This document shows positions 12,370-29,158 of a DNA stretch of 64,000 nt, one piece after another. The translations under genes and the position numbers were made by a program. Source of the DNA: an uncultured Pseudomonadales bacterium (GTDB taxonomy: Bacteria > Patescibacteriota > Microgenomatia > UBA1400 > UBA12028). Each line of letters starts with the position of its first letter. Position 1 is the first letter of the stretch. The notes beneath the pieces are model-generated. The model was not told where the DNA came from and did not search any database. It saw nothing but the letters and a program-made list of their open reading frames with translations. Location of the stretch: assembly GCA_964635905.1 (NCBI GenBank), contig CAZWPK010000001.1, forward strand, positions 155,863 to 219,862. Reading direction: 5' to 3'.

Positions 12370-12430
12370 TTTAGTGGCAGAACAGGAGACTCCAAATCTC
12401 TTAGCGAGGGTCCGATTCCTTCCGCCCCTG
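12360..12430 (+). tRNA. tRNA-Trp (anticodon CCA), no encoded CCA end
   Basis: Acceptor AGGGGCG/CGCCCCT, U8. D-stem GTTT/GAAC. Anticodon stem GGAGA/TCTCT, loop CTCCAAA. T-stem GAGGG/CCTTC (one GU), loop TCCGATT. Discriminator G. Folded by eye. Confidence 0.75.
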
Positions 12431-12538
12431 CAAATATATTTAAGCTTGATTAATCAATGTAATTAATTCAATAAGAACGGTCTTTATCTTCCTTCGAACC
12501 TACTATATTTTGCGGAGTCTTTCGTTATAATACTCCAA

Positions 12539-14284: not shown

Positions 14285-15531
14285 ATAATTTCTATGGTCT
14301 GACTTCTTTCAGGCCCTACAGAAATAATTCTAACAGGTATCTGGAGTTCATCTTCAATAAACTGCACATAATTCTGGCAATTTTTAGGAAGTTCCGAATA
14401 TTTTCTAGCTGAAGAAATATCAGTACTCCATCCTGGTAGGTCTTTATAGATTGGTCTCACGCTCAATAAGTTAAATATCTGGCCTGGTTGATCATTCTCG
14501 TCGTAGGATGTACAGACACGAATATTTTCAAAGCTGGAGAGCACATCTAATTTTGTGAGTGCTATTTCTTTTACCCCATTCATTTTAATTGCGTATTTCA
14601 ACATAGGGAGATCCAGCCATCCGCAGCGTCTTGGTCGTTTTGATATAGTCCCATACTCATGTCCAACCTCTCTCAATTTTGCTCCAGATTCATTTTCTTG
14701 CTCAGTTGGGAATGGGCCACTACCAACTCGTATCGTATAGGCTCTCACTATTCCCAAAACGTCTATCTCCAAAGGAGGAAGACCTACATTTGGAAATACT
14801 GATGATGCAAGTGTATTGTAAGCAACAGTGAAAGGGTATGTGCCAAAGGAATAATCGAGATAGAACGCTTGAGCAGACTCAAAAAGATACTTGCTTGTCT
14901 GAAAATTTTCAATAATGACTTCTGCGACTGGTCTGAAATATTTACTTAGAAGTTTTCCGTAGTGCAAATATTGTTCGACAATTTCTGATACATTTAGCTT
15001 TGTAGACTTTCCATATACATGTTCTAGTCTTCTCTTCTTTAACTCCCATACTTCATTTATTTTTGAAGCTAATATCTCTTTGTCTAAGAGGTCAACAAGT
15101 CGTATTCCATCTCTGTTAGTTTTGTCTTCATATGAGAATCCGACACCTAATTTTAGTGAACCAACTTTTTGTGAACGATATTCCTCTGACGCTTCATCCA
15201 GAGCAACATGATACGGCATGATTACATGGCATCTCGGATCGATAGAGAGTTTGAAGCTCGAGCTAAATGTTTTAACTTTTTCAATTTCTTTTAATAAAGT
15301 AGAGGGACTTATAGAACAGCCTTGAGCTATGAGCACAGGGTGACCAGAAAGTACTGAAGACGGTAAGTGAGAGAGGGGAAGTTTGTTTTCTCCGACAACA
15401 ACGGTATGTCCAGCATTGTTTGCCCCATTGAAACGAACGCCAGCATCAAAACGATTTCCAAGAAAATCTGCAATTTTCCCTTTACCTTCATCCCCAAATT
15501 GCAATCCGAGGAGGATTAATGAATTTGACAT
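14281..15531 (-). CDS. Adenylosuccinate synthetase homolog (PurA-like), divergent IMP-binding motifs
   Basis: 'GDEGKGKIADFL', 'NNAGHTV', 'TKLDVL', 'RVGSGPFPTE', 'GWLD', C-terminal 'SVGPERSQTI' all PurA-like. Canonical 'GTTGRGIGPAYEDK' is replaced by 'KLGVGFSYEDK'. Confidence 0.75.
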   Translation of the reverse strand: MSNSLILLGLQFGDEGKGKIADFLGNRFDAGVRFNGANNAGHTVVVGENKLPLSHLPSSVLSGHPVLIAQGCSISPSTLLKEIEKVKTFSSSFKLSIDPRCHVIMPYHVALDEASEEYRSQKVGSLKLGVGFSYEDKTNRDGIRLVDLLDKEILASKINEVWELKKRRLEHVYGKSTKLNVSEIVEQYLHYGKLLSKYFRPVAEVIIENFQTSKYLFESAQAFYLDYSFGTYPFTVAYNTLASSVFPNVGLPPLEIDVLGIVRAYTIRVGSGPFPTEQENESGAKLREVGHEYGTISKRPRRCGWLDLPMLKYAIKMNGVKEIALTKLDVLSSFENIRVCTSYDENDQPGQIFNLLSVRPIYKDLPGWSTDISSARKYSELPKNCQNYVQFIEDELQIPVRIISVGPERSQTIEII

Positions 15532-15766
15532 AGTAAGTCTACTTAAATGTTCGGATATAGTACAGTAAATTGATTCCAGATCGAATAGGAAGTTTTAGCT
15601 TGAAGAGTATTTTTTGTTAAATAGGTTCTGACGTCCTCCACTAAGCCCTGCAAAATAGAGATAGATTGATATTGCAATCTAAAAACCAACTTTCTCGAAT
15701 ATCGATCCACAAAGACATACAAAACTGGGTTCACAGTGACTTTGGGAAATGATATATTCTTCTTTT

Positions 15767-16113
15767 ATGTCTAATCTTTATAAAACAGTGGACTCTGTAC
15801 GAATAGAGTTTGAAAAGGGAGCATCTCAGCAAAACTATTAGCCTCTTTATACTCGAGTTATCACAAACTTGAAGACATTGATTCATTTATAGATAGCTCG
15901 GTTAAACTCTTCCCATCACTAAATTGTGGTATCGCAAGTGTGTATCTTAAACATCTTCTGGATCAAGGTGTGGTTATAAATGGTAAATATGATAACAATA
16001 ATCATACTTTTCTTGCGCTATGTGATGGAAAGATTGTCTACATAACTGCAGATCAATTTGGTGGACCAAAGATATATATAGGTCCGATGAATTTTGCTTG
16101 GAAGTTAAGGTAG
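15767..16113 (+). pseudogene. Frameshifted copy of the 114-aa protein family represented intact at 26945-27289
   Basis: Translation 'MSNLYKTVDSVRIEFEKG...' then -1 shift '...LFPSLNCGIASVYLKHLL..NHTFLAL.DGKIVYITADQFGGPKIYIGPMN' aligns with 26945-27289 product ('LFPTLNCGIASVYLEYVL..HHTFLFIDGITVVDITADQYAGPVIYIGPLN'). Confidence 0.55.
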
Positions 16114-16150
16114 GTTCGAACATCTTCCACGCACCCCAGTAGAATGTCCA
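16113..16150 (+). repeat. Degenerate copy of tRNA-Trp 3' end (T-arm/acceptor-like), repeat A
   Basis: 'GGTTCGAACATCTTCCACGCACCCCAGTAGAATG' begins at the stop codon of the pseudogene. Aligns to tRNA-Trp 3' half 'GGGTCCGATTCCTTCCGCCCCTGCA' and to repeats B-E. Confidence 0.45.
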
Positions 16151-16163
16151 TTGTCATGAAATA

Positions 16164-16778
16164 TTAATCTACGGTAGGAGATTGATGGTTCAAAAACCGG
16201 TCAATTTTATTTTCATGCAAAACAATAAATTCTTCATTGACAATATTGACCTCAGGATCTCTAAGTTCATCAATTAGTCCTACAGCTTGTAACTTTGTGA
16301 GAATCACCCCACTTCGAGTATGACCGTTCTTCCATTGTTCTTGATAAAAATGAATTGCATTAATCGCAGTTTCTCTATCCAATCTCATTCCTGAGAGTAT
16401 TTTTCTGACGGCTTCCCATTCATGGTAGCTATCATCTTCTTTAAATAAACCTAAATTCGCATCAATACTTTTTCGTACATCGCGCATTTCCATTGGGTTC
16501 AGGGGTATGAGAGTTGCCTCAGATGGACTATCGATCAGGCCAAGTAATTCAAGTTTAAGTAAAACCGTGCCTGCTGCTCCCGAACCATTTTTTCGATCTC
16601 TTACTAAAATGTCGATCATCTTTTGAGCTGAAAGATGATCGCCAATCTCTAGGTTGAAAAGGATCTTGTTGATTTCTTGCCAATCGACTGATTCAACATA
16701 CGCCTCACTCCACTCTCTTTTGTTAGAAAAACCTAATCGTTGCCAATCAGGAAGCTGTTGGTGTTGATCACCGTCCAT
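16164..16778 (-). CDS. Hypothetical protein with internal duplicated segment
   Basis: 204 aa. Two similar segments 'GTVLLKLELLGLIDSP' and 'GVILTKLQAVGLIDEL'. No known motif. Confidence 0.4.
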   Translation of the reverse strand: MDGDQHQQLPDWQRLGFSNKREWSEAYVESVDWQEINKILFNLEIGDHLSAQKMIDILVRDRKNGSGAAGTVLLKLELLGLIDSPSEATLIPLNPMEMRDVRKSIDANLGLFKEDDSYHEWEAVRKILSGMRLDRETAINAIHFYQEQWKNGHTRSGVILTKLQAVGLIDELRDPEVNIVNEEFIVLHENKIDRFLNHQSPTVD

Positions 16779-16949
16779 ATGTGATCAGATTAGCACGAAA
16801 TATTTGTGAGAAATAGGCTCCAACATCCATTTGTTTCCACGATATGCAAATGAAGACGCTCACTCCTATATGGGGTATAAGCGAAAGACGACTGGGGAGC
16901 AGTGTTTACGTTATGCCGAAAATATGCAATTGGCTCTAGAACGGAAATT

Positions 16950-16990
16950 GGTTCGAACATCCTCCACGAGTCCCTGCAAGGACATTTTTC
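16950..16990 (+). repeat. Degenerate copy of tRNA-Trp 3' end, repeat B
   Basis: 'GGTTCGAACATCCTCCACGAGTCCCTGCAAGGACAT' shares 'TCCCTGCAA' with the tRNA-Trp end 'CCCCTGCAAA'. Lies 9 nt after the stop of a 32-aa ORF remnant. Confidence 0.45.
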
Positions 16991-17027
16991 TCGAGTAAAA
17001 ACTTTTGACAGACGCGAGGAATCGAAC

Positions 17028-17771
17028 CTAAAACTCTTTTAGGTAACAGATTTTCTTTTCTCCATAAAATCGAAGATTCTTTGCTTTCCCAGCAAAACGT
17101 ATTTCTACAGCTGCAAAGTGTTCTTCAGAATGAAAGCTAAAAGTAAATCCTTTTGAAAAAGCAAGATGAAGAGTGTCTCTTTCTACTGCAAATGACTGGA
17201 ATGAGAGTAGTTTTTCAGCAAGAGAATCAAGAATAGAGTCAATTTCTTTTTTGGAATTTGATGAGCTTTCTATTAATGCTTTACCTTCTTCGTCTTTCAG
17301 ACTCCACTTCGCATAGGTACAAAATACTGAATCATTTGAAAACCGAGCTTGAAGGATGGTTCCATAAACGCGGAATATTTTTGTGATTGCTTGACCTTCA
17401 AGTGCTTGGAAATCTAGAGAGAGCTGGTTTTTCGTGATAGGAACCTTTTGTGCCAGTTGCTTCAACAAGTGGTATCTATCGAAACTATGACAAGCTTTTG
17501 GATTCAGAATCCCTCTATTTCCAACAGGTGACTTTTCAATCCTATCCAATGCATATGCATGGAGTTCGGTTGGGAATGAATAGAGTTCAAACTCTCCCTT
17601 ATCTGTTTCGATAAAATGGCGCCAAACTTTCCGTCCAATATAGTCAAAATAGGTAACGTAGGTGATCGTACCTACTCCGAAGTGGTCAAGGATACCTTGT
17701 AGCACTGGCAAGCTATAAATACTCTTCATGCAACTAATTATATCTTGGAATGGATAAATGGGCTCGATCAT
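17028..17771 (-). CDS. Hypothetical protein
   Basis: 247-aa ORF, AT-rich. No motif recognised. Confidence 0.4.
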   Translation of the reverse strand: MIEPIYPFQDIISCMKSIYSLPVLQGILDHFGVGTITYVTYFDYIGRKVWRHFIETDKGEFELYSFPTELHAYALDRIEKSPVGNRGILNPKACHSFDRYHLLKQLAQKVPITKNQLSLDFQALEGQAITKIFRVYGTILQARFSNDSVFCTYAKWSLKDEEGKALIESSSNSKKEIDSILDSLAEKLLSFQSFAVERDTLHLAFSKGFTFSFHSEEHFAAVEIRFAGKAKNLRFYGEKKICYLKEF

Positions 17772-17934
17772 CTCACGCCTTTGGCGGGCAAGCCTGCAAT
17801 GTTTTAGTTGTTCCCCAGGTGTTTAGAGAAAACCATCTCTAAGGTGGATTAGAATAAAATCTGCAACGGAATTTGATCACGTCGGTTACGTTCGAATTGT
17901 TTCAAGACAAGACCGTCTGTTGTATTGACAAAAC

Positions 17935-18246
17935 ATGTACAAAACCTATCATTCTTGTATGGCTTTAAAGCTTAGTTTTAATGAGGAAAAGAATCAAATA
18001 TTAAAAGCTACTCGCGGAATCTGTTTTGATGATGTGGTTGAAGCGATCAAGAAAAAGAAGCTTTTAGCTACTATTGCTCATCCAAGCACCAAACATTCAA
18101 ATCAGTGGATCTATATCATTGAGATTGAAGGCTATGCCTACGCAGTTCCGTACGTAAAAAACGCAAAAAAAAATGAAATATTTCTTAAAAGTGTCTATGC
18201 AAGTCGATTCATGACAAAAAAGTATATAAAAAGGAGAAGCAAATGA
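17935..18246 (+). CDS. BrnT-family (DUF497) type II toxin
   Basis: ~100-aa protein, 'FNEEKNQILKATRGICFDDVVEAI...IYIIEIEGYAYAVPYV', consistent with BrnT ribonuclease toxin. ATGA overlap with downstream BrnA-like gene. Confidence 0.6.
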   Translation: MYKTYHSCMALKLSFNEEKNQILKATRGICFDDVVEAIKKKKLLATIAHPSTKHSNQWIYIIEIEGYAYAVPYVKNAKKNEIFLKSVYASRFMTKKYIKRRSK

Positions 18247-18548
18247 AAAGAATCCAAGATCCTTTTATCAATCTGGTATTGGACGAAGAAGAGAAAGCAC
18301 TAGAAGAAACCTTTGAGCGCGGAGATTTTGAGGAAGATGCTCATCTTGAAGATACAAAGAAAATGCTGGAAGAAGCTGCTACACGCTATAGTCAGCTACA
18401 TACCTCAAAACCAGTTACCATTCGTATCAAGCAGCTAGATTTAATAAAAGTGAAATCAAGAGCGAAAGCCAAGAATATTCCCTATCAAACATTGATTGGT
18501 TCAGTTATCCATCAATATGCAGAGGGGAATGAAAAATTAAGTTTATAA
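18243..18548 (+). CDS. BrnA-family antitoxin (C-terminal RHH-like)
   Basis: C-terminal 'VTIRIKQLDLIKVKSRAKAKNIPYQTLIGSVIHQYAEG' matches BrnA hallmark (..ITIRLD.D....K..A...G.GYQT.IN..LREY). Confidence 0.65.
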   Translation: MKRIQDPFINLVLDEEEKALEETFERGDFEEDAHLEDTKKMLEEAATRYSQLHTSKPVTIRIKQLDLIKVKSRAKAKNIPYQTLIGSVIHQYAEGNEKLSL

Positions 18549-18550
18549 TA

Positions 18551-18593
18551 GGTTCAAACATTCTCCACGTGTCTTCTCCCAAGAAGTGCACAT
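18551..18593 (+). repeat. Degenerate copy of tRNA-Trp 3' end, repeat C
   Basis: 'GGTTCAAACATTCTCCACGTGTCTTCTCCCAAGAAGTGCACAT' directly after the BrnA stop codon. Confidence 0.45.
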
Positions 18594-18692
18594 CGACAAT
18601 ACGACTCTCCTCAACTAAAACTGCTATCAGAGCAATTGAGAGTATGCATAATAGTAGTTGCAATACTAATCCGCATAATGTATACTCAGTTC

Positions 18693-19868
18693 ATGATTAA
18701 CAGAGCAATTTCTCACAAAATCAAAGAGCTTCATCGAAAATACCCGGTGGTTTCTATCGTGGGCCCAAGACAATCTGGGAAAACTAGCTTGGCACAATAT
18801 CTTTTCCCTAACCATACTTACCATAATTTAGAAAATCTGGATATCTTGAGTCTGGCGAAGAGTGATCCAAAGGGTTTTCTTAAAATAGGCTCAGGAGAGC
18901 GTTTTGTTATTGATGAAATTCAAAAATTTCCAGATTTACTTTCTTATATTCAAGTTGAAGTTGATAGTCAAAAAAAAGATGGACAATTTGTCATCACTGG
19001 ATCACAGAATTTTTCAATTGCAGAAGGCATTTCACAATCATTGGCCGGGAGAGTTGCAAATTTTGTTTTATTACCTCTAACTCATGAAGAAATTACTACC
19101 AGTGAATATTCAAATCCTGTCGCAAACACAATCCAACAAATCATACTAAATGGTTTTTATCCTAGACCTCTGGTAAAAAATATCCAACCAGAGGATTTTT
19201 ATCGTGATTACTTAAGTACATACATCGAGCGAGATGTTCGGCAAATAAAAAACATCGGTGATCTGAGCACTTTTCAGAAATTCTTACAACTTTTAGCAGG
19301 GAGGGTAGGGCAACTTGTTAACTTTTCTTCCCTAGCCAATGATGTGGGGGTGAACTATAAAACGATCGAGTCTTGGTTAAGCATTTTGGAAGCCAGTTAT
19401 GTTGTTTACACGTTGCAGCCCTATTATGAGAATTATGGTAAAAGAGTCATTAAAAGTCCTAAAGTGTATTTTTATGATGTTGGTTTATTATGTCACCTCT
19501 TAAAAATTAATTCTGTTCATGAGCTTGAATCACATTTTGCATATGGTCAAATCTTTGAAAATTTTGTCATTACAGAAATGATTAAAACCAATTTCAATTT
19601 AAGAAAGAATGAGCAAGTCTACTTTTGGAGAGACAGTAATAGTAACGAGATTGATGCAGTGATTGATTCAGGCGAAAATAAACATGGAGTTGAGATCAAA
19701 GCTGGGAGTACTTTTAATATTGACATGCTTAAAGGACTATCGCAATGGCAATCACTAAATCCATCTAAAAATACTCCCACTCATCTGGTCTATAACGGAG
19801 AGCAGGAGCAAAAGGTACGAGATCATCAAGTTGTGAATTGGAAAACATTTCTAAGCAGTTTGAATTAA
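18693..19868 (+). CDS. AAA-family ATPase with DUF4143-type C-terminal domain (COG1373-like)
   Basis: Walker A 'GPRQSGKTSL'. Walker B-like 'RFVIDEIQKFPDL'. Overall architecture typical of the ATPase/DUF4143 family. Start moved to ATG 18693 ('MINRAISHKIKELHRKYPVVSIVGPRQSGKT'). Confidence 0.75.
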   Translation: MINRAISHKIKELHRKYPVVSIVGPRQSGKTSLAQYLFPNHTYHNLENLDILSLAKSDPKGFLKIGSGERFVIDEIQKFPDLLSYIQVEVDSQKKDGQFVITGSQNFSIAEGISQSLAGRVANFVLLPLTHEEITTSEYSNPVANTIQQIILNGFYPRPLVKNIQPEDFYRDYLSTYIERDVRQIKNIGDLSTFQKFLQLLAGRVGQLVNFSSLANDVGVNYKTIESWLSILEASYVVYTLQPYYENYGKRVIKSPKVYFYDVGLLCHLLKINSVHELESHFAYGQIFENFVITEMIKTNFNLRKNEQVYFWRDSNSNEIDAVIDSGENKHGVEIKAGSTFNIDMLKGLSQWQSLNPSKNTPTHLVYNGEQEQKVRDHQVVNWKTFLSSLN

Positions 19869-19870
19869 AG

Positions 19871-19910
19871 GGGTTGAATATCTTCTATTAACCCCTGCAA
19901 ACATAGGTTG
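19871..19910 (+). repeat. Degenerate copy of tRNA-Trp 3' end, repeat D (best match)
   Basis: 'GGGGTTGAATATCTTCTATTAACCCCTGCAAACAT' vs tRNA-Trp 'GAGGGTCCGATTCCTTCCGCCCCTGCAAATAT'. Begins 3 nt after the AAA ATPase stop. Confidence 0.5.
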
Positions 19911-20002
19911 AATCAAAATAATCGATTTTTCTATCAGTCATGCAACTCGCGCACCTTGCTCAAATTTCTTCTGATACTTGATCTGTATAGTATGCTTTAA
20001 CC

Positions 20003-20785
20003 ATGAGTAAAGATAAAATTCTTTCTCCACTTTTTTCAGAAAAGAATGTTAAAAAGAAAACACGTTTCAACTTTTTAGGCATTGGTATCGGCAGAGATAG
20101 GGATAAAAACGGCATTGATAACCAGCTAGACTCCGCGCGTTTTAGAGAATTGATGGGGGAATGGTATAAAGAGGAAAAAACGATACAAAGAGATCGTGAT
20201 GCGGGAAGAAAAGTCTCAAGGGAAGATGTTCAAAGAATTGACCGTCTCCGACTAAGAATTATCACTGAATGTATTCAGATTTTGGAGAAATGTAACAGTC
20301 CTAGATCCTACAGGAATTTATTAGAGACAGCAGCGTGCCTTTATTATGAGGCTGCAAGATTCCGTAGTTATGAGCTTATCGAAATTGCTCAGAAATACGA
20401 GCAAATAGCGGTACACCAACTTAAATTGCAAAAACCAACAGAAAATGTGAGCAATTTATTTAAAGGCTTGCCGAGAGCAAGGGACTTAAATCATGAGCTT
20501 AGTGCGATTGTAACTGGTGACGCTCGCTTTGACGAGGCTAAAATTAAAAGGATCTCAGGAGAGCTTATTGCACTTTACTATGCCTATGATGAGAACAAGT
20601 TAGCTCCCTATGACATGGGGAGAATTAAGTTTGACTATAGTACGGAACATATCGAGTTTAACGTCTTAAGTCTAGGAGGATGGATTATTGCTCAGCTAGT
20701 ATTAGAAGCACATAGTTTAGGTATCACGGATTTTTCCTCTTATATTCTCTTAAGGAACAGGATAGAGGACTTTCCGAAACGGTGA
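20003..20785 (+). CDS. Hypothetical protein
   Basis: 260-aa ORF. No motif recognised. Confidence 0.4.
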   Translation: MSKDKILSPLFSEKNVKKKTRFNFLGIGIGRDRDKNGIDNQLDSARFRELMGEWYKEEKTIQRDRDAGRKVSREDVQRIDRLRLRIITECIQILEKCNSPRSYRNLLETAACLYYEAARFRSYELIEIAQKYEQIAVHQLKLQKPTENVSNLFKGLPRARDLNHELSAIVTGDARFDEAKIKRISGELIALYYAYDENKLAPYDMGRIKFDYSTEHIEFNVLSLGGWIIAQLVLEAHSLGITDFSSYILLRNRIEDFPKR

Positions 20786-20867
20786 AACCTAAGAAATCGA
20801 AAGATTTTCTCTCAAGCAGAGAACCAATCAACAATCTCACTGAGTAAGGAACGTTCTAGTGAAATAA

Positions 20868-21545
20868 CCTGACCATCTAGTGCGGATACAGTCTCCAGTT
20901 ACTATTGCAGATTAAGAAGCAGAGAAGAGTATTCGCTCAATTATTTCCACTGCATTCCCAGACCATCGAATTCTAGGAGAGGAAGAGGGGACTAACACCT
21001 CGGATTTTTCGTATTTATGGATCATTGATCCAATTGATGCAACAAAGAACTATTTACGACACATCCCACTTTTTGCTACCCAGCTTGCGCTGATGAAGGA
21101 TGGAGAAGTGATTCTTGGAGTATCGAACTCTCCTGAAATTGGCGAACTGCTGTATGCGGAGAAAGGACAGGGAACCTATTGCAATGACACAAAAATCTCG
21201 GTCTCACAGAAGTCATCGATTCAAGAAGCATATCTAAGCTATCGTAGTGTCGGATATTTTCAGAGAAGCGGTCGCATGGAACAGTTTTTGAAGCTAGAAA
21301 ACGACACGCAGGCTCATCGTGGCTTTGGAGATTTTTGGGGATACCATCTATTGGCCCAAGGGAAAGTAGACATTATGCTGGAAGGGAATACGAAGCTGTG
21401 GGACGTTGCGGCAGTATCCATTCTTGTCAGCGAGGCAGGGGGAACGGTCACAGATTTTGAAGGGAACCCCATCAACGAATCCACAACATCCATTATTGCC
21501 ACAAATGGACACCTTCATACTGCAGTGGCAGGATACTTTTTCTAA
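20868..21545 (+). pseudogene. Inositol monophosphatase (SuhB/IMPase) family pseudogene: 5'-truncated with in-frame TAA
   Basis: In-frame translation '..PVTIAD*EAEKSIRSIISTAFPDHRILGEEEG...WIIDPIDATKNYL' matches IMPase motifs (DLVTEAD.AAE..I...YP.H.ILGEE; WIIDPIDGT.NF). TAA at 20913-20915. First ~40 codons absent. The intact-looking part is ORF 21093-21545. Confidence 0.6.
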
Positions 21546-21571
21546 TCTTGAACTAACTGGACAATATTTCC

Positions 21572-22570
21572 TTGCACCAATCATCGGTGGCTCGGCATGC
21601 AAAATTCCTCTGGTATACTCAAACAATGACAATTATTTCCTTTTTAAATCCAGTTAATCTTGCACAAGAAAAAGAAAAATTCTTCAATTCTGACTCGTAT
21701 CATCCGCAGCTTTGCTATGACTGGAATGAACAAGAGATCGCAGCCTGGATAAACCGGGAACCTGAATATGCTTCCTTTTCAAAAGCCATACTTTCACAAG
21801 ATAGCGACGCCATTGAAAAGGAGGGTAGACATGCGTTCTCAACTGTAATGGATCCTCAGTTGCTTAACCTAGCTACCACTGTTACTTCGAAGCCTCCACA
21901 ACTCTTTTCTACTCCGGATATAAGTAAAGTTGTATCCTCTTTTGAAGATGCCTTTTCCTTTTTTGGACTAGACTACACGATTGAAGTGAGCGAAGCACAT
22001 GGCTTTAACTTTAGACCTGTCCATGAGGAAAAGAAAATTGTTGTGAGTACACATCTAAACATGCAGTTTTTTTCCCTTGATGGAGAGATTAAGCACGAGT
22101 TGTTGCATGTGATTCGAAATGTAAACACACAATCTTCCTCTATTCCATTTTCAGCAAACTACTTACCAACCGAAGAAGGATTGGCAACCTACTTTCAAGA
22201 TTATGTGGGCTTACATGGCGAATCCTCGTTATTCCAACATGCGGCTGAATATGTCATGACGAACACTGCCTTACATGGGTCGTTACGCGATATCACTGCC
22301 TTTTTGCAAACCATTGGGTTTAGCAAAGAACTGGCATGGCAACGCGCTATTCGTCACAAATTCGGTTTCATTGATACGGCCCAACCCGGTGACAATCTGA
22401 AACCAAGTATGTATTTCTATTGGCAACAAAAAATAAAAGCCATCTCTGATGCCGAAAAGCTACGATTACTATCAGGAAAGATTAGGCTTGATGAGCTAAC
22501 AAACTATCCGACTTATTCAGGAATCATTCCCAAAGAGAAATGCATACAATTTTATGCGTTGTCCATCTAA
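21572..22570 (+). CDS. HExxH metallopeptidase-like protein resembling DUF1704 / QEGLA-motif family
   Basis: 'IKHELLHVIRN' (HExxH) followed by 'PTEEGLATYFQ' (QEGLA-like). 332 aa. Confidence 0.4.
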   Translation: MHQSSVARHAKFLWYTQTMTIISFLNPVNLAQEKEKFFNSDSYHPQLCYDWNEQEIAAWINREPEYASFSKAILSQDSDAIEKEGRHAFSTVMDPQLLNLATTVTSKPPQLFSTPDISKVVSSFEDAFSFFGLDYTIEVSEAHGFNFRPVHEEKKIVVSTHLNMQFFSLDGEIKHELLHVIRNVNTQSSSIPFSANYLPTEEGLATYFQDYVGLHGESSLFQHAAEYVMTNTALHGSLRDITAFLQTIGFSKELAWQRAIRHKFGFIDTAQPGDNLKPSMYFYWQQKIKAISDAEKLRLLSGKIRLDELTNYPTYSGIIPKEKCIQFYALSI

Positions 22571-22684
22571 AAAGGCATTCCGATCGCTTTGTTAGTTGCT
22601 AGCGGGGGGAAAAGAGAGCTTCTAGTGGGTCTAATGGACAACAGGCACTTGAAAAGCACATAGAAAGCACTATAATAGTCCCAT

Positions 22685-22939
22685 ATGGATACAACTGGAA
22701 CTCAAGTAAAAGTGACACTCCCTGATCCTCTCTACGAGTATGCAAGTAGTAAGGCAGGGAAGTTTGGGATTACCCTTTCCTCGTATATTAAAAACCTCAT
22801 TCTTAATGATGTTAAAGATATGGACTTTCCTGTCTATCAAGCATCCAAAAAGACTGAAGCGTCGTATCAGAAAGCAGTCCAAGAGAAAAACGAAGCTACT
22901 GAAGTTAAAAATATTAATGCTTTTTTTGACACGTTATGA
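22685..22939 (+). CDS. RHH-type antitoxin (ParD/RelB-like)
   Basis: 'VKVTLPDPLYEYASSKAGKFGITLSSYIKNLI' ribbon-helix-helix pattern. 84 aa. ATGA overlap with downstream toxin gene. Confidence 0.5.
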   Translation: MDTTGTQVKVTLPDPLYEYASSKAGKFGITLSSYIKNLILNDVKDMDFPVYQASKKTEASYQKAVQEKNEATEVKNINAFFDTL

Positions 22940-23202
22940 AAAGAATAACGTTTAGTCCAACGTTTCAAAAAAAACTGAAGATCCTTCACAGAAAAGATAA
23001 AAATCTTATTGAGAAGATTAGAAAACAGCTTCTTTTGTTTCAAGAGAACCCTAAGCATCCCTCATTACGTCTTCACAAATTGAAAGGCGACTTACAAAAT
23101 ACCTGGAGTTTATCTATAACAATGAGTTTCCGACTGCTTTATACTGAAGACACCGAATACTATTTTTTTGACATGGGCGAGCATGATGAGATTTATCGAT
23201 AA
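22936..23202 (+). CDS. RelE/ParE-family type II toxin
   Basis: 88 aa, '...NPKHPSLRLHKLKGDLQNTWSLSITMSFRLLY' typical RelE/ParE core. Operon partner of upstream RHH protein. Confidence 0.6.
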   Translation: MKRITFSPTFQKKLKILHRKDKNLIEKIRKQLLLFQENPKHPSLRLHKLKGDLQNTWSLSITMSFRLLYTEDTEYYFFDMGEHDEIYR

Positions 23203-23225
23203 GATAAATTTGCTACAATGCAGTT

Positions 23226-23876
23226 ATGATTAAAGCTGTTGTGTTCGATCTCGATGATACGTTGTTACAGACACGGGAGACAAAGTTTGCCGCCATCAAA
23301 TATGCGGGTGAGCACTTCTATGGTCAATCCATCTCCGATGAAACCATCAACAGCCACTGGGGAAAACCATTTCGCGAGTTCACCGCGTTAGTCTTTGGAG
23401 ATGTCGATTCCGTGGACGGCATTATTAGTAACTACAAATCCATTGTTCAGCAATTCAAAAACCGTGAGCATCCAGGTACCGGAGAAACACTTGAACTACT
23501 CTTCCCACACTACAACGTGTGTATCTTAAGCTCAGCCGCACAAAGCTTAGTAATGTACGATTTGGAGACTGCCGGGCTGCCCATCCAGAAGTTTACTTTT
23601 ATCCAGGCAGCCGAGGATACTAAGGTTCATAAACCTGATCCTAAAGTTTTTATTCCTACCTTAAAAGTTCTCCACGATCTTGAAATTGAACCAAACAATG
23701 TTCTCTATGTAGGTGACATTGTGTCTGACTATGTAGCAGCTAACGGGGCAGGAGTGCACTTTAGAGGAATTGCAGATCGGACCATTTCTCAGGCAGAATT
23801 TGAAAAAGCAGGTGCAACCACAATCTTAAGTATTCGTGAGTTACCTACGCTACTTTCTAACTGGACAGCGTCATAA
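23226..23876 (+). CDS. HAD-superfamily hydrolase (phosphatase)
   Basis: Motif I 'VVFDLDDTLL', motif IV 'YVGDIVSDYVAA'. Confidence 0.7.
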   Translation: MIKAVVFDLDDTLLQTRETKFAAIKYAGEHFYGQSISDETINSHWGKPFREFTALVFGDVDSVDGIISNYKSIVQQFKNREHPGTGETLELLFPHYNVCILSSAAQSLVMYDLETAGLPIQKFTFIQAAEDTKVHKPDPKVFIPTLKVLHDLEIEPNNVLYVGDIVSDYVAANGAGVHFRGIADRTISQAEFEKAGATTILSIRELPTLLSNWTAS

Positions 23877-23892
23877 GAAAAAACTTTCCCAT

Positions 23893-24369
23893 ATGTTTAA
23901 TCATGTGACTTCACAGTATCAGTGTCCAATCTGTCTTGGGATCCGAGGCGGCAATGACAACAATACCCTTATTCGTCAGAGTGACATTGTGTATACCGAT
24001 GACCAAGTCATGGTATTCGTCGCTTCCTACTTTATTGAAAGTAACCTAGGACACTTGATTGTAGTTCCTAAACAGCATGTTGAGCACCTCTATGATCTCT
24101 CGGATGAGGTGGGAGCCAGAATTATCTCAGTAGCCCGACACATGGCAATTGCGATGAAACAGGCTTATGAATGTGAAGGGGTAATGCTACTTCAGAATAA
24201 CGAACCTGCTAGCGGACAACATGCATTCCATTTTCATCTCCACCTCTTTCCACGCTATTCCACTGATCAATTTTTTTCTCATGTAGAGAACAAACGTGAA
24301 ACTTCAGCAGAGGAACGATTGCCGTATGCTGAAAAGATTCGAGGGGCGTTATGTGGGCAATCTACCTGA
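23893..24369 (+). CDS. HIT (histidine triad) family protein with N-terminal CxxC
   Basis: Histidine triad 'HFHLHLFPR'. N-terminal 'CPICLG'. Start moved to ATG 23893. Confidence 0.65.
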   Translation: MFNHVTSQYQCPICLGIRGGNDNNTLIRQSDIVYTDDQVMVFVASYFIESNLGHLIVVPKQHVEHLYDLSDEVGARIISVARHMAIAMKQAYECEGVMLLQNNEPASGQHAFHFHLHLFPRYSTDQFFSHVENKRETSAEERLPYAEKIRGALCGQST

Positions 24370-24579
24370 GACGCACAATTGCAATTTAGTATCCACCTAG
24401 GAGGATACATTGTTAGGAAATACTCGTTTCTCAACACGACGTCCATCCTGGGCGAACAACATTCTGCCTTCAGCAAACTAGCAAACTGTACCATTCCATA
24501 ATAAATGTATCTAGACCCATAATTAGAAAGATTGAGTTGTTTGTGTTAAAATGCTCCTCTTATCTGTAGAAAGATTTCT

Positions 24580-24861
24580 ATGACAAAAGAACAACTTACT
24601 GACTTAATCTCCAGTGCAAGAACATATTATGGCTCTCTTGATATGGCCTCAATTCATCCTTTAGTAGTAGAACTATCTGAAGCATTCAGTATTGCTCCAA
24701 CTATTGCGCAAAAGTTAATCGTTGGATTTCCCGCACAAGTTATAGTAGATGGTATTGGACAAGTAACTGTCCCAGACTTAGTGGAAGATGATGACGCCGC
24801 AATACTTGTTCGAGAAGGTAAGATCACAGAATTGGTAAACCGGATCTGTGAACGAAGGTAA
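24580..24861 (+). CDS. Hypothetical protein
   Basis: 93-aa ORF. No motif recognised. Confidence 0.3.
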   Translation: MTKEQLTDLISSARTYYGSLDMASIHPLVVELSEAFSIAPTIAQKLIVGFPAQVIVDGIGQVTVPDLVEDDDAAILVREGKITELVNRICERR

Positions 24862-24934
24862 CGTACGCAGTTCAAACGTCCTCTGTATGAAATAGTTAAA
24901 GTAGTGTACATATGTAGAGGGATCATCACTCACT

Positions 24935-25867
24935 ATGTCACACACTTTCTTTACACGCCCTCCCGACCAGATTGAGAAACGAACCATTGGGAGAGGGAAA
25001 ACCACCACGATTACCATTTACTCCTTTTTAAAGTCAACGCATGCCTATGCAGAGTCGTTTGGTTTTCAATGGAAACGCTATGCGAAAGTTCAAATTGATC
25101 GTTTCAACGGCACCAAGATTACCAAAAGCCATTTAGAGCAGTTGTTAGGATTCCCGTTATCGAAGCTTAAAAACCAGACAGTGTTGGAAATAGGCTCTGG
25201 AGCCGGCCGCTATACCGATCTTTTTCGTACCCTTGCTCACCATGTCATCACCGTGGACCCCAGCGCTATCGACAGTAATGTCGGAATTGGATCAAGCTCG
25301 GTTACTGCTGTGCGTGCAGACCTCTTTGATCTGCCGATACAACCGGAGAAAATCGACCTGGTGTTCTGTCGAGGAGTCCTGCAGCATACCCAAGATCCCA
25401 TCGCGGCGATTGAGCAACTGTGTAGGTATGCAAAGGTCGGAGGACTGGTAGCCTTTGACGTCTATCCCCGTAACTGGCAATCACTCTTCTATACCAAGTA
25501 TTATCTCCGTGCCATCACCAAACGATTACCCAAAAAACAGTTTGCTAAGTTTCTGGAGCGCAATATCCCGTGGATGCTACGACTAAAAGTAAAATTTCTG
25601 AATCCGCTCTTTCCCGACATCCGTTTCATTCGTGAGATCCCCAACATCGTGTTTCCCATTGCAGACTACACTCGATATAAGCCACTGGCTAGTCTATCGT
25701 TTGAACAGCAGGTCCAATGGTCAATCTTAGATACCTTTGACATGTATACCCCGGAATTTGACACTCCACTCTCGTTTGAAGAAGTCCTTGCAAACCTACC
25801 CAAAAACATGGAAGTTGTTCGAGCGGATCGGGATCAATATCATTTTGTTTTCAAACGGGTGAAATAA
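24935..25867 (+). CDS. Class I SAM-dependent methyltransferase
   Basis: Motif I 'VLEIGSGAGRYTDLF', acidic loop 'VITVDP', motif 'FCRGVLQH'. Confidence 0.7.
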   Translation: MSHTFFTRPPDQIEKRTIGRGKTTTITIYSFLKSTHAYAESFGFQWKRYAKVQIDRFNGTKITKSHLEQLLGFPLSKLKNQTVLEIGSGAGRYTDLFRTLAHHVITVDPSAIDSNVGIGSSSVTAVRADLFDLPIQPEKIDLVFCRGVLQHTQDPIAAIEQLCRYAKVGGLVAFDVYPRNWQSLFYTKYYLRAITKRLPKKQFAKFLERNIPWMLRLKVKFLNPLFPDIRFIREIPNIVFPIADYTRYKPLASLSFEQQVQWSILDTFDMYTPEFDTPLSFEEVLANLPKNMEVVRADRDQYHFVFKRVK

Positions 25868-25922
25868 CACTGTTACCAAGCACACATTTCTTCTTTGAAC
25901 TCCTTTTGGTATTATCCTGATA

Positions 25923-26261
25923 ATGATCATCACAACATCAACGCCATTTACTCTCGAAGAAATTGAACAGTTAAAAGAGCAATTTGAAGTCTATGTGAAA
26001 ACAGTTATCGACATAGAACTGAAACAGTGTAGTGCAGGAATGAATCGTCACTTTCAAGGAGAACAGATTCTGTTATCAACGGGATCCAAACAGAGTAATC
26101 TATGGGGAGGCGGAATTGATTTGGAGACGCTAGAAATTGATTTTAACTCCTTCATTAATATCCGTCCACGAGACAAGAATACGAAAAATGAAATACAAAG
26201 TGAAGAAATTAAAGCACAGTACGAAAAACTGACAAAATATTTTTTCCAGGAAATAGTATGA
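25923..26261 (+). CDS. Hypothetical protein
   Basis: 112-aa ORF. Confidence 0.3.
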   Translation: MIITTSTPFTLEEIEQLKEQFEVYVKTVIDIELKQCSAGMNRHFQGEQILLSTGSKQSNLWGGGIDLETLEIDFNSFINIRPRDKNTKNEIQSEEIKAQYEKLTKYFFQEIV

Positions 26262-26533
26262 ATTCCACACAGATGTTACTCGGCTCATTATCAAATGATC
26301 TTTTTCGAGTTGCTAGTTGCGCTCAACGAGGATCAACGCAAGCTGCATCGAGGTTTTTGACTGAAGCCAAGCGATGGGCAATTTCATTGCAATCACAAAC
26401 CGTGGCTGCGTATATCAAAACTATTGCAAACGATATTGCGCAAAGAGAGGTGAGTGATATCTCAATTGAATCTGCTGAACGGTACCTAATGTACGGAATT
26501 TTGTTGCAAAACTATACGCTTCATCACACCTAG
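26258..26533 (+). CDS. Hypothetical protein
   Basis: 91-aa ORF, ATGA overlap with upstream ORF. Its TAG stop overlaps repeat E. Confidence 0.3.
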   Translation: MNSTQMLLGSLSNDLFRVASCAQRGSTQAASRFLTEAKRWAISLQSQTVAAYIKTIANDIAQREVSDISIESAERYLMYGILLQNYTLHHT

Positions 26534-26565
26534 GTTCAAACGTGTCCCATGAATCCTAATACGCC
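26533..26565 (+). repeat. Degenerate copy of tRNA-Trp 3' end, repeat E
   Basis: 'GGTTCAAACGTGTCCCATGAATCCTAATACGCC' shares the GGTTCRAAC head with repeats A-C. Confidence 0.4.
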
Positions 26566-26883
26566 ATGTCATCCTCACAAAAAACCATAGACTACCTAAT
26601 AGACCAGATGTCGCAAGCAGGGCAAATTCGTACTCGCAAACTGTTTAGTGAGTACGCAATCTATTGCGATTCGAAAGTGGTCGCTTTTGTCTGCGACGAT
26701 GAACTGTTTGTTAAACCTACAGATGCGGGTCGACAGTCTATTGGCTCCGTCGTTGAAAAGCCCGCCTATCCTGGAAGTAAACTATACTTTTGGATCTCTG
26801 GCGATCAATGGGAAGATCCTGACTGGTTATCCCAATTAATTCAACGAACAGCCACAGTCCTACCACTTCCTACCAAGAAATAG
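26566..26883 (+). CDS. TfoX/Sxy N-terminal domain-like protein
   Basis: 'RKLFSEYAIYCDSKVVAFVCDDELFVK' resembles TfoX_N (RKMFGGYGLY.DGKMFALI.DD.LYLK). Confidence 0.45.
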   Translation: MSSSQKTIDYLIDQMSQAGQIRTRKLFSEYAIYCDSKVVAFVCDDELFVKPTDAGRQSIGSVVEKPAYPGSKLYFWISGDQWEDPDWLSQLIQRTATVLPLPTKK

Positions 26884-26944
26884 AAAGTGGAATAGTCAAC
26901 AACTCAAATTAGATACAAAAAACAGCAACGGGGTCATTTTTTGT

Positions 26945-27289
26945 ATGAGAGATTTTTTGGAAGTAATACAACACGCTCGATTTGAGTTTCAAAACCGTAG
27001 AGTCTCAAAGAGTCTTCTTTCCATGTTGTATCAAAAGTACCAGCACATAGAAAATATCGAATTATTTATTGAGAGAGCTTCTGTTTTATTCCCAACTCTT
27101 AATTGTGGAATTGCAAGCGTGTATCTTGAGTATGTACTAGGAACTGGAAGGGTAGTCCAAGGGAAATTCAACACACATCATCACACGTTTCTGTTTATCG
27201 ATGGGATAACCGTCGTAGACATAACTGCTGATCAGTACGCAGGACCAGTAATCTATATTGGCCCACTGAATGTTCCCAGGACAATTTGA
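26945..27289 (+). CDS. Hypothetical protein (intact member of family with pseudogene copy at 15767-16113)
   Basis: 114 aa. 'LFPTLNCGIASVYL...ITADQYAGPVIYIGP' conserved with the pseudogene copy. Confidence 0.45.
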   Translation: MRDFLEVIQHARFEFQNRRVSKSLLSMLYQKYQHIENIELFIERASVLFPTLNCGIASVYLEYVLGTGRVVQGKFNTHHHTFLFIDGITVVDITADQYAGPVIYIGPLNVPRTI

Positions 27290-27298
27290 GCTAGTGTC

Positions 27299-27328
27299 TC
27301 TCCTTCTTTACAGAAGGAGAACATTTTT
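27299..27328 (+). terminator. Candidate intrinsic terminator
   Basis: 8-bp stem TCTCCTTC/GAAGGAGA (27299-27306 / 27313-27320), loop TTTACA, then ACATTTTT. 10 nt after the stop at 27289. Confidence 0.35.
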
Positions 27329-27483
27329 AACTTCAATGAGAATAGCGGTACACTCTCTCTACTTGCAACAAATGGAATATTGCATGACGCCGGATCAAAT
27401 TGTTTCAGCACCTCAACTACAACACCTAAATATTCCTACATTGACATCCTTCTGCACGACCTGTTTTACTTAACCATAGTAGT

Positions 27484-27966
27484 TTGAATAACCCTTTTAG
27501 GAGCGGTATGACACTTTCTCGATTTGCAGCATCCATGAGTATGGCTGCCGTTGTTCTTCTCACGATCTCTGTTTCCCCTTCTTTTGCTGCTCCGCGTACA
27601 GGGACACTGTACACTTCGAAAGAAAAGGGCATGGGTGTGCAAGTGATCCCGTATGTGACAGCCGATAAACATAGTGTTTTTCTGGATTTTTCAGCGACCA
27701 ATCTTTCCTCAGTTGAGTACATTAAATACAACCTAAACTACGACACCTCCAAAGGACTTCGAGGAGCGGAAGGGATGAAGTGGCCACTAAAAGCAGAGTA
27801 CAAGCTCTTTAAAGGTGTTCCCTATGTTCGTCAACATATTTTATTAGGAACCTGTTCAAAGAACATCTGTAGTTATGATTCTAACGTCAAAAACTTCCGT
27901 TTGACCGTAACGACCAAATATAAAGGTAAAGCTGCCGAACAAACCAGAGTTGTATCGTTTAACTAA
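27484..27966 (+). CDS. Secreted hypothetical protein (signal peptide)
   Basis: N-terminal 'MSMAAVVLLTISVSPSFAAP' signal-like. Confidence 0.4.
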   Translation: MNNPFRSGMTLSRFAASMSMAAVVLLTISVSPSFAAPRTGTLYTSKEKGMGVQVIPYVTADKHSVFLDFSATNLSSVEYIKYNLNYDTSKGLRGAEGMKWPLKAEYKLFKGVPYVRQHILLGTCSKNICSYDSNVKNFRLTVTTKYKGKAAEQTRVVSFN

Positions 27967-27976
27967 CCTTTGACTG

Positions 27977-28426
27977 TTATTTTTCCTGAGAGGAAGCGCC
28001 GACAAAACGCTCGGTATCTACGGATGGGGTTTGGGATGCAACATCTAGGGGCTCCAACGATGCGCGCATGTGAGCGATGATCTCTCGTAGAGATTCAGGC
28101 TCTACCATTGTCGTTGCCGGCATAATCGAAATTTTACCAGAAGTGGATGCAGCAATCACAATCCGTTCTCCATTTGGGAACGTAATTTGTGTTCCAGAGG
28201 CCCCTTGTGAAAGGGTAGAGCCACTCGGGTATTCTAGCGCGTACCCGGATTCTAGATTTTCCAATAGTGCCCAAGTAATTGGACTTGGACTTCTGATCGG
28301 TACGGCCGTTCTAGTAAAGGAAGGTAACTGCGCAGTTCCCAGGACAATCCCAAGAATCCCAACAACAATTAAACCAACACAGACAATGGCACGAACGCGC
28401 ATAGGAAGTGACATAGGTAGATGCAT
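27977..28426 (-). CDS. Hypothetical membrane-anchored protein
   Basis: N-terminal TM 'AIVCVGLIVVGILGIVLG'. Confidence 0.35.
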   Translation of the reverse strand: MHLPMSLPMRVRAIVCVGLIVVGILGIVLGTAQLPSFTRTAVPIRSPSPITWALLENLESGYALEYPSGSTLSQGASGTQITFPNGERIVIAASTSGKISIMPATTMVEPESLREIIAHMRASLEPLDVASQTPSVDTERFVGASSQEK

Positions 28427-28611
28427 ACAATCAATCTTCGTTCGATTGGCAACATCTCTTCTTTGTATACAAGATCACAGCATTCTTCGTCAAACCTTGA
28501 TTTACTCATACGATCCCTGTACGTGTATCGGAAGTAAACGACCTCACCAGAGATGTGATCAAAATCACTTCAATGCTACCTCCATTCAGGTATATTCAAC
28601 GAGGTGAATAT

Positions 28612-29088: not shown

Positions 29089-29158
29089 AAGCATTGCCAT
29101 TGTGTGGTGCTGTAATTGGTCTCCTGTAAGGAAGTGCGTTCTTGTACAATACAAAAAC

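Follow-up and report, generated by a model that had tools for sequence, protein, structure and literature searches.

The closest described relatives of the locus that we report here are the staphylococcal cassette chromosomes (SCC, including SCCmec), the elements inserted by the serine integrases of phages and of integrative and conjugative elements (ICEs), the integrons, and the tycheposons of Prochlorococcus. Our locus is in a 64-kb stretch of contig CAZWPK010000001.1 (the window), from an uncultured bacterium of the candidate phyla radiation (CPR). It is a low-GC island that begins at the 3' end of tRNA-Trp and contains several copies of a repeat. The same ~35-nt element (AGGTTCGAACATCCTCCACGAGTCCCTGCAAAT) is present in at least seven related genomes, only downstream of tRNA-Trp, and in two genomes tRNA-Trp and a copy of the repeat flank an element that encodes a large serine recombinase (LSR). 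We propose that the repeats are probably attR-type scars of serial integration by LSRs.

SCC elements are integrated by Ccr recombinases, which are of the LSR class, into the 3' end of one conserved housekeeping gene (rlmH), and they form tandem units that are bounded by direct repeats and have terminal inverted repeats; some units (psiSCC) lack a recombinase (PMC12648241). Our locus resembles SCC in all of these features. However, the target here would be a tRNA gene (its T-arm and acceptor end) instead of rlmH, the host is a CPR bacterium, the units can be single promoter-bearing genes of ~0.7 kb instead of elements of 3-60 kb, and most of the arrays have no recombinase. Also, these LSRs form a distinct family, in which the C-terminal codons of the gene overlap the tRNA.

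Serine integrases read the same outer motif, with their zinc-ribbon domain, in both attP and attB, and this motif is 5 bp nearer to the centre in attB (Rutherford et al., PMC3783163); the corresponding distances at our locus are 23 and 18 nt. Other similarities to the serine integrases of phages and ICEs (A118/LI, Bxb1, phiC31, SPbeta) are the Resolvase and Recombinase domains, a recombinase gene that adjoins the attachment site, and a short core. In contrast to our locus, where many scars accumulate, those integrases give one prophage per site, without re-use of attL, and the right-hand (P') motif is weak here. Also, tRNA targets are unusual for serine integrases.

Like integrons, the arrays contain one-gene cassettes that are each followed by a recombination-site-like repeat in one orientation, as well as toxin-antitoxin cassettes. 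Arrays without a nearby integrase are common and are known as CALINs (attC-site clusters with no integron-integrase; PMC4889954). Unlike integrons, the arrays have no IntI, no R''/R' boxes, and no hairpin that is supported by covariation; the cassettes have their own promoters; the anchor is a tRNA and not attI; and the implicated enzyme is a serine recombinase and not a tyrosine recombinase. The locus is not an integron, and the integron-like array that had been offered as an alternative in a preliminary description of the window can be set aside. The class of mechanism, in which a serine recombinase integrates elements and these accrete in tandem at a single housekeeping gene, is already known from SCC (PMC12648241) and from serine-integrase prophages.

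The tycheposons are tRNA-seeded islands in streamlined genomes with few mobile elements of other kinds; as new elements arrive, they displace the older ones inward, and partial tRNA copies are scattered across the island (10.1101/2020.12.28.424599). Our locus is similar in these respects. In contrast, tycheposons carry tyrosine recombinases and replication modules, have true partial tRNAs, and have units of many kb, whereas our repeat seems to be a recombinase-specific look-alike that is 5 nt longer than the tRNA segment. We know of no described integrons in CPR bacteria (Patescibacteria), and our literature searches turned up neither this system nor any integron in CPR.

A repeat family downstream of tRNA-Trp

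The anchor of the island is tRNA-Trp (CCA), at 12360-12431 on the + strand (identified by ARAGORN and Rfam). The 3' end of the tRNA (12431) is exactly where the GC content drops from 46% to 39%, and the GC content recovers at ~28 kb, so the island spans 12.4-28 kb, with 39% GC versus 46-47% elsewhere in the window. Similarly, in every related locus that we measured, the GC content of the array is below that of the flanking core by ~1 to 8 points, and the gene content of the island is different in every relative. Thus, the features of a tRNA-targeting genomic island (a start at a tRNA 3' end, deviant composition, and variation between relatives) are all present.

The head of the repeat (GGTTCRAACATYYTCCACG) has three exact matches in the window (in repeat A at 16113, B at 16950, and C at 18551), as compared to 0.09 expected from shuffled sequences. 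The tail motif (CCCCTGCAAA) by itself is at chance level (5 matches with at most one mismatch versus 4.4 expected). To avoid circularity, we scanned the window with a hidden Markov model (HMM) that was built from 22 copies from other genomes only. Four copies are robust: r0 (E = 2.6e-11), B (2e-10), A (7e-6), and C (2.8e-4). Repeats E (0.5) and D (0.53) are marginal, as is a possible eroded seventh copy (AAATAGGCTCCAACATCCATTTGTTTCCACG, 16811-16841, E = 1.2). The 64 kb has no better HMM matches than these seven, which are all on the + strand and within 15.6-26.6 kb, and there is no copy in the remaining 48 kb of the window. So, the repeat family that had been described from the window is real, but the list of its members (A to E) missed r0 and included the two marginal copies.

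The consensus of 23 copies is AAATAGGTTCGAACATCCTCCACGAGTCCCTGCAAAT, which we call the L-arm. It has two subfamilies, both of which are present in the window: subfamily i is GAAC...CGAGTCCC and subfamily ii is TGAC...CTAAGCCC. At a junction between units, the L-arm is followed by one of three recurrent types of spacer, then often by an inverted copy of the head (the R-arm, G(G/C)TCGAACCTAA), and then by a -10 box.

The copies in the window vary in how much of this arrangement they retain. Repeat r0 (15619-15655, +; 15620-15654 in the repeat search) reads AAATAGGTTCTGACGTCCTCCACTAAGCCCTGCAAAA, belongs to subfamily ii, and is followed by a "type 1" spacer, which is the tRNA-flank type. Repeat A (16108-16145, +) has an intact head and an eroded tail (CACCCCAGTAGAAT). 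Repeat B begins a full junction (16945-17031, +): its L-arm (16945-16980) is the consensus but for one base and is followed by a "type 2" spacer with TTTTTCTCGAGT and by the R-arm GGAATCGAACCTAA (17018-17031). Repeat C (18547-18576, +) has an intact head and has lost its tail. Repeat D (19867-19924, +) has a degenerate head and, as compared to the tRNA, a good tail (CCCCTGCAAACAT), followed by a degenerate R-arm and type-1 flank (TAGGTTGAATCAAAATAATCG, 19904-19924). Repeat E (26531-26560, +) is eroded; its TAG is the stop codon of a 91-aa open reading frame (ORF), and the orthologous cassette in a related genome (L038) likewise ends in TAG-GTTC. There is also an R-arm 60 nt after tRNA-Trp (CCTTCGAACCTAC, 12491-12503, +), and it is followed by a TATAAT box (12526-12531) that lies 7 nt before the ATG of the first gene of the island. 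The same arrangement of R-arm and TATAAT box follows tRNA-Trp in L031 and L036.

It had been stated that every copy lies just after the stop codon of a plus-strand ORF. Repeats A, C, D, and E conform to this (the TAG of TAGGTTC is the stop codon in the case of A and E), but B and r0 do not. Repeat B comes after the 5' end of a gene on the minus strand (16164-16778), where the small plus-strand ORFs are not credible; r0 is upstream of the minus-strand gene purA. Thus, the orientation of the L-arm tracks the tRNA and not the neighbouring gene.

We collected orthologous loci by using a conserved 455-aa gene beside tRNA-Trp. The homologues of this gene have lineage names of Woesebacteria, Pacebacteria, or Patescibacteria. 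The host of the window is a Woesebacteria-like CPR bacterium, and the occasional "Pseudomonadales" labels of metagenome-assembled genomes (MAGs) are misnomers. The element is found in loci L031/L023, L034, L035, L037, L038, L048, L049, and L050. All of these copies are on the strand of tRNA-Trp and downstream of it; in these loci, the core DNA across tRNA-Trp from them (~10 kb) has no copy. In L031+L023, which is syntenic with the window at 7.5-12.4 kb, tRNA-Trp is followed by at least 11 units of ~0.5-1.6 kb (typically ~0.7 kb), with one ORF each, and each unit ends with TAGGTTCGAACATCCTCCACGAGTCCCTGCAAAT. There are at least six copies in L034, three in L037, two in L035, and one each in L038 and L048, while none is present in L033 or L036. 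The site is near-empty in L036, where the MFS-Pterin_4a genes correspond to the ones after the island in the window.

Searching more widely for further copies, as had been proposed, supported the restriction to this site. We scanned for the exact head across 185,579 species genomes (one genome per species) and found 26 loci, most of which are single chance matches (by our estimate, ~35 would be expected). Two MAGs with arrays matched only in the contigs that bear this locus, and one MAG contig had six matches ~670 bp apart (this is L031+L023). A scan of metagenomes gave one extra copy (L032).

The repeat resembles tRNA-Trp but is not a decayed copy of it

The consensus aligns best to tRNA-Trp 3' ends (score of 31, z = 6.3-6.7, and 0 of 2,000 shuffles for L031 and L034); against the tRNA-Trp of the window, the score is 26 (z = 4.2). 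Other tRNAs also score (29 for tRNA-Tyr) because of the generic T-arm, so the Trp-specific part is CCCTGCAAA, which extends past the end of the tRNA into the flank. Of the copies in the window, r0 (p ~ 0.0007), B (p = 0.004), and D (p = 0.0007) are similar to the 3' 45 nt of the resident tRNA-Trp, mostly via CCCTGCAAA, while A, C, and E have no significant similarity to it. So, the alignment of the repeats to the tRNA that had been described holds for just some of them.

The preliminary description interpreted the repeats as degenerate copies of the 3' end of tRNA-Trp, and here our results disagree. Genomes with two quite different alleles of tRNA-Trp (...GGTCCGATTCCTTCCGCCCCTG, as in the window, and ...GGTTCGAATCCTGGTAGCCCTG) have L-arms that match exactly over ~30 nt, and therefore the L-arm is not a decaying copy of the resident gene. 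Also, an HMM built from six copies in the window does not match the tRNA-Trp 3' end at E < 100. Instead, the repeat is a distinct conserved sequence that is 5 nt longer than the tRNA segment.

This difference in length is constant. In the tRNA-Trp of the window, the motif GGGTCCGA is 18 nt before the core CCCTGCA, and the same core ends repeats r0, B, and D. The distance from the start of AGGTTCGA to CCCTGCA is 18 nt in 8 of 11 tRNA-Trp genes (the ones that could be scored) and 23 nt in all 14 of the L-arms with an intact core, including r0 and B. The outer half-site is thus shifted by 5 bp, as between the attB and attP arms of LSRs. If the T-arm of the tRNA is the B arm, then the L-arm, with GGTTCGA at 23 instead of 18 nt from the core, is the expected P arm. 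The R-arm of L031 starts 9 nt past the end of the tRNA, which is a B'-like distance.

The type 1 spacer contains CCATTCCTTCCGTCCTTG, which matches the 3' end of the other tRNA-Trp allele (GATTCCTTCCGCCCCTG) at 16 of 18 positions (at L031 5400-5450, at L031 5985-6005, and in the L035 junction at 9488). Remnants of more than one integration seem to be nested in the junctions.

Large serine recombinases at the same site

As had been noted, the window encodes no recombinase: none of its 53 non-nested ORFs of at least 150 aa has a recombinase or transposase match in Pfam (including PF00589), and tblastn with the LSR of other genomes (described next) was negative. (The Pfam scan took in all of these ORFs but for one degenerate fragment that overlaps glmS.) Apart from the serine recombinases, the gene tables of 10 related loci have no recombinase match either.

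In L049, the gene for an LSR of 562 aa (with PF00239 and PF07508) is convergent with tRNA-Trp, and the 3' end of the tRNA, in antisense, forms the last ten codons of this gene. An L-arm (E = 1e-8) is found 9.6 kb from this junction, and it is followed by native flanking sequence, which is the same type 1 sequence that lies directly after tRNA-Trp in L031. In L050/L051, which we found independently via homology to the LSR, another LSR (52% identical to that of L049) overlaps tRNA-Trp, and the element extends for 8.3 kb, with a cI-like repressor and then an L-arm (E = 1e-5). The identity between the two junctions of each element is limited to CCCTGCA (in L049) or CCCTGCAAG (in L050), which is the short shared core that attL and attR should have. 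In both of these elements the recombinase is beside the junction, unlike in the window.

The ends of the LSR proteins point to the same target in other genomes. Of 120 homologues, 24 end with LQGxx(E/D)SN and 18 carry a FWR-type tail motif. These tails are translations of antisense tRNA-Trp, so these homologues also abut tRNA-Trp. Joining the LSR of L049 to its L-arm predicts that the protein in the excised form would end with ...LQGLVEDVRTHLSSTSVF.

We also noticed that the conserved peptide LEPEK of the LSR is encoded by CTCGAACCTGAAAAA, which places GGTTCGAG-like motifs inside the recombinase gene near the attachment site (L049, 9560-9800). In distant viral relatives of the LSR (L052, L053) there are GGTTCGAAC motifs too, and a T-arm-like sequence is found where L052 ends.

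We considered three other genes as recombinases and rejected them. The conserved divergent gene (DUF6938) looks like a glycosyltransferase on reading its sequence and is present in more than 900 CPR proteins; a helical protein (9444-10274) is poorly conserved; and an ORF with a helix-turn-helix (HTH) domain that abuts tRNA-Trp is absent from several genomes with arrays and has no catalytic domain.

Junctions and cassettes

Modules from the junctions recur between unrelated genes, with the -10 box 6-8 nt before the next ATG. Genes of cassettes that begin 6-8 nt after a TATAAT or TATACT box are found in the window (12526-12539, 18681-18695, and 22671-22685), in L023 (1399-1410), and at the tRNA flank of L036. 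This leaves no space for a Shine-Dalgarno sequence, which suggests that the cassettes may be expressed as leaderless transcripts from promoters that they carry. Overall, the counts of predicted promoters and terminators are the same as in shuffled sequences, and no terminator-like site coincides with an L-arm; in the promoter scan, the one suggestive feature is that individual -10 boxes lie right before ATGs.

The two subfamilies of the L-arm combine freely with the three types of spacer, and therefore the breakpoints are at the CCCTGC core. Furthermore, homologous cassettes are found at different positions of the array in different genomes: a YafQ-type toxin-antitoxin pair is shared by the window and L034, and DUF5674 with the 91-aa ORF is shared by the window and L038 (with TAG-GTTC at its end in both). 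The YunG-like gene and an inositol monophosphatase are likewise shared cassettes. Several of the shared cassettes, including the YafQ pair, lack their flanking repeats in the window.

The L-arm and the R-arm could pair to form an outer stem of 9-11 bp around a variable loop, and in some junctions the folding z-scores are -2 to -4. There are no compensatory changes in this pairing, however, and the covariation term is positive. With these modest z-scores and no covariation, a structured hairpin or an attC-like fold has little support. In attC sites, the R'' box is RYYYAAC and the R' box is GTTRRRY. By inspection of 26 aligned copies, our repeats do not match these boxes: the head has TTCGAAC or TTCTGAC, the R-arm has CTCGAACCT, and the other strand has GTTCGAA or GTTCGAG.

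Proposed serial integration and its alternatives

In our proposal, site-specific integration at the 3' end of tRNA-Trp left the repeats as attR-type scars, and the island grew by serial accretion, most likely due to an LSR. We estimate that the probability of this explanation is about two in three. Serial integration at tRNA-Trp with remnants of attachment sites left behind was also the first suggestion of the preliminary description, and the confinement of the repeat to one side of tRNA-Trp and the two bracketed LSR elements support it.

Each scar would have two parts. The first would be a P half-site that was carried by the incoming element, which looks like a T-arm but has GGTTCGA 23 nt from the crossover core. 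The second would be the core CCCTGCA(A), which is shared with the acceptor end of the tRNA, followed by whatever sequence was 3' of the tRNA at the time. The T-arm would be the attB version of the motif, 5 bp nearer to the core, and tRNA-Trp would provide the left arm of attB. The presumed makers of the scars would be the LSR family that, in related genomes, has its gene at the tRNA-proximal end of the 8-10 kb elements at this site. Repeated integration would give an array of units that each end in an L-arm, with many of them starting with an R-arm and their own -10 box. The window has no recombinase, several of its scars are eroded or lost, and the array is apparently static. The one-gene cassettes may have been moved in trans by such an LSR, by analogy with ccr-less SCC elements, which are mobilized in trans. 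We favour the trans-mobilization of recombinase-less cassettes because the units are uniform, a stop codon is built into the L-arm, and the 5' modules are shared.

Several results weigh against this explanation. In the window and in 9 of 11 related loci, no recombinase is encoded closer than 10 kb to tRNA-Trp, and no array has a remnant of an LSR. The distal L-arm in L049 or L050 could in principle belong to an older cassette and not to the LSR element. We found no excised (attP) form among the 120 LSR homologues or in collections of viruses, plasmids, and phages: in the viral collection, two motif scans and one scan with an LSR profile gave only chance or very distant matches, and BLAST of the full junction against plasmids and phages gave no match. 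The dyad symmetry of the reconstructed attB and attP is not above background, and the motif of the P' arm is weak. Contigs of the window's species from five samples have identical gene order, with no polymorphism in the presence or absence of units. The identity of the copies to the consensus is not significantly related to their distance from the tRNA (rho = -0.25, p = 0.21), so there is no age gradient of the kind that was implied by the earlier suggestion that older remnants are displaced downstream. Finally, canonical serine integrases do not re-use attL, so serial accretion requires either a relaxed, Ccr-like enzyme or cassettes that regenerate attB. In L031, an intact site with the tRNA and an R-arm is upstream of the 11 cassettes.

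Alternatively, the island might be modular because of RecA-dependent homologous recombination after DNA uptake, by which cassettes would be gained, lost, and shuffled without any dedicated recombinase. The junctions (35-110 nt) would then be portable homology with terminator and promoter punctuation, and the resemblance to the tRNA would be due to an ancient duplication of its flank. This would explain why most arrays have no recombinase nearby and why junction modules with a well-placed -10 box recur between unrelated genes, and it predicts the free assortment of L-arm subfamilies and spacers equally well. The window encodes DprA, and there is a TfoX_N gene within the island. Homologous recombination does not account for the constant addition of 5 nt relative to the tRNA, for the exact placement of LSR elements, in two genomes, between tRNA and L-arm, for the polarity of the L-arm relative to the tRNA instead of the genes, or for a conserved head that is joined to different tails in other classes of CPR (see below). 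Furthermore, orthologous cassettes work without an L-arm (in the window, the YafQ pair has lost its L-arm). We consider this alternative unlikely.

Another alternative is that only full-size LSR elements were integrated and that each was later deleted down to its last gene and its attR scar, so that the cassettes are debris. Full elements do exist at this site, and the array in the window is visibly eroded, with a pseudogene, a truncated inositol monophosphatase, and lost repeats. However, decay of this kind would not be expected to yield arrays of at least 11 units with one ORF each, a stop codon within the L-arm, and recurring R-arm and promoter modules at the 5' ends, or to leave no fragment of an LSR in any array. 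Also, in L049 and L050, the L-arm is 30-40 nt beyond the last gene and does not overlap its stop codon. Decay of full elements seems quite improbable as the general explanation, and we return to trans-mobilized cassettes as the better account of the units.

It is very doubtful that the repeat is a repetitive extragenic palindromic (REP or REPIN)-like or RNA-level element, in which a hairpin of the L-arm and R-arm terminates or stabilizes transcripts and which is spread by a RAYT-type transposase or by selection: although a 9-11 bp stem is possible and the copies are usually just after stop codons, covariation is absent, terminator-like sites are no commoner than in shuffled sequences and are not found at any L-arm, each genome has its copies at a single locus, in the DNA that we examined, instead of dispersed ones, no Y1 or RAYT gene was found, and L-arms are also found beside the 5' ends of genes on the opposite strand.

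We also rejected a Xer dif or pdif site (28 bp, with 11-6-11 partial palindromes), as by inspection the consensus has no such symmetry; a DNA-uptake sequence, as the repeat is not genome-wide; CRISPR, as the spacing is wrong; and pairing with the anti-Shine-Dalgarno sequence, as the cassettes look leaderless.

Gene content of the island

The first unit of the island (12432-15618, GC ~37%) encodes, according to Pfam, a cytochrome P450 (12539-13783, +), a NUDIX protein (13775-14284, -), and adenylosuccinate synthetase (purA, 14281-15531, -). Two orphan minus-strand genes are also among the content of the island. After r0 comes a pseudogene (15769-16113, +), which is a stop-interrupted paralogue of the YunG-like gene at 26945-27289 and whose TAG stop is the first 3 bases of repeat A. 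A pair that resembles BrnT and a CopG antitoxin (17959-18548, +; Pfam matches below the gathering cut-offs) has its stop codon directly before repeat C, and a cassette with an AAA_14/DUF4143 ATPase (18695-19868, +; from Pfam and the gene call) lies between repeats C and D.

Next is a block of ~11 genes without recognizable internal repeats (20003-26530, +), which includes, according to Pfam, a truncated inositol monophosphatase, the YafQ-type pair, HAD and HIT proteins, a methyltransferase, and DUF5674 with the 91-aa ORF. Several of these genes are repeat-flanked cassettes in other genomes. The inositol monophosphatase (21093-21545, +) is truncated to 150 aa, while its homologue in L038 is full-length (265 aa); together with the YunG-like pseudogene, this is a sign of gene decay within the island. 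The distal end of the low-GC island (26566-28000, +) contains the TfoX_N gene, the YunG-like gene, and small ORFs. Past the island, the core genome resumes with ArsR-MFS-Pterin_4a, which adjoin tRNA-Trp in the near-empty site of L036.

In the window (28555-32454) and in L036, the MFS and NTP_transferase genes lie distal to the island, and in L033-L035 and L038 they are on the other side of the block with tRNA-Thr and L33. These positions point to a rearrangement whose breakpoint was at the tRNA-Trp locus or close to it.

On the other side of the tRNA, the frameshifted HTH ORF (11712-12369, +) has a weak N-terminal match to HTH_23/HTH_17, and its end overlaps the start of tRNA-Trp. By eye, its C-terminal part is LAGLIDADG-like, but it has no sequence match in Pfam or PDB. 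L031, L033, and L038 have an intact version of this ORF and L034-L037 have none, and thus it has no tie to the arrays. Farther away in the window, there is a glmS ribozyme (Rfam RF00234, 45.3 bits) at 39351-39557 (+), upstream of glmS (39666-41408).

Other CPR lineages and implications

Copies of the head are also found in other CPR lineages. A contig from Adlerbacteria (PLCJ01000003.1; L020, 1-8000) has 5-7 copies on the same strand within 8 kb (up to 11 by eye), with the tail G(C/G)GGAGCAAAA. An unclassified MAG (MFD00082.bin.1.43) has 5-7 copies with the tail GCGCCGGAGCAAAA, and CAVOJZ010000002.1 (L009, 1-8000) has a dense array of same-strand heads with a different tail and with R-arms that read GAGGATTCGAACC. 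We found no tRNA within the 8 kb of array sequence of L020 or L009. There are single copies of the head in contigs from Vogelbacteria, Patescibacteria, and Saccharibacteria. In the contig from Saccharibacteria (CAYRER010000028.1; L027, 2847-2878), the head is followed by ACCCGCAC, which is the 3' end of the tRNA-Gly(CCC) that lies 435 nt away (3282-3353). By a manual count, the distance from TTCGA to the core is again 5 nt longer than in the tRNA. This copy is upstream of tRNA-Gly instead of downstream, and we cannot explain this arrangement. Together, these sequences suggest that a conserved head that may be recognized by a recombinase is joined to a target-specific tail across CPR lineages.

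CPR bacteria (Patescibacteria) have tiny genomes with few recognized mobile elements. Tentatively, we suggest a platform for gene capture in Woesebacteria, Adlerbacteria, Vogelbacteria, and Saccharibacteria, in which promoter-bearing and probably leaderless one-gene cassettes are stacked at tRNA 3' ends by a family of LSRs whose recognition motif mimics the universal T-arm of tRNAs, with an adjoining tail that matches the particular tRNA. Such a platform would be integron-like but would use another class of enzyme. Its new elements would be the T-arm of a tRNA as the attB motif of a serine recombinase, the promoter-bearing one-gene cassettes, and the CPR host range; the window would be an eroded example without the recombinase.

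The T-arm as attB, with the textbook 5-bp offset between attP and attB, would be a clean natural case of site mimicry, and recombinases with sites of ~50 bp would be candidates for genome-engineering toolkits. For the bacteria themselves, the locus is a recurrent and precisely bounded acquisition site that holds small genes for metabolism, detoxification, and toxin-antitoxin systems, and it points to a testable enzyme family and DNA signal. If the one-gene cassettes are mobile, they would represent a second, independent invention of the integron principle.

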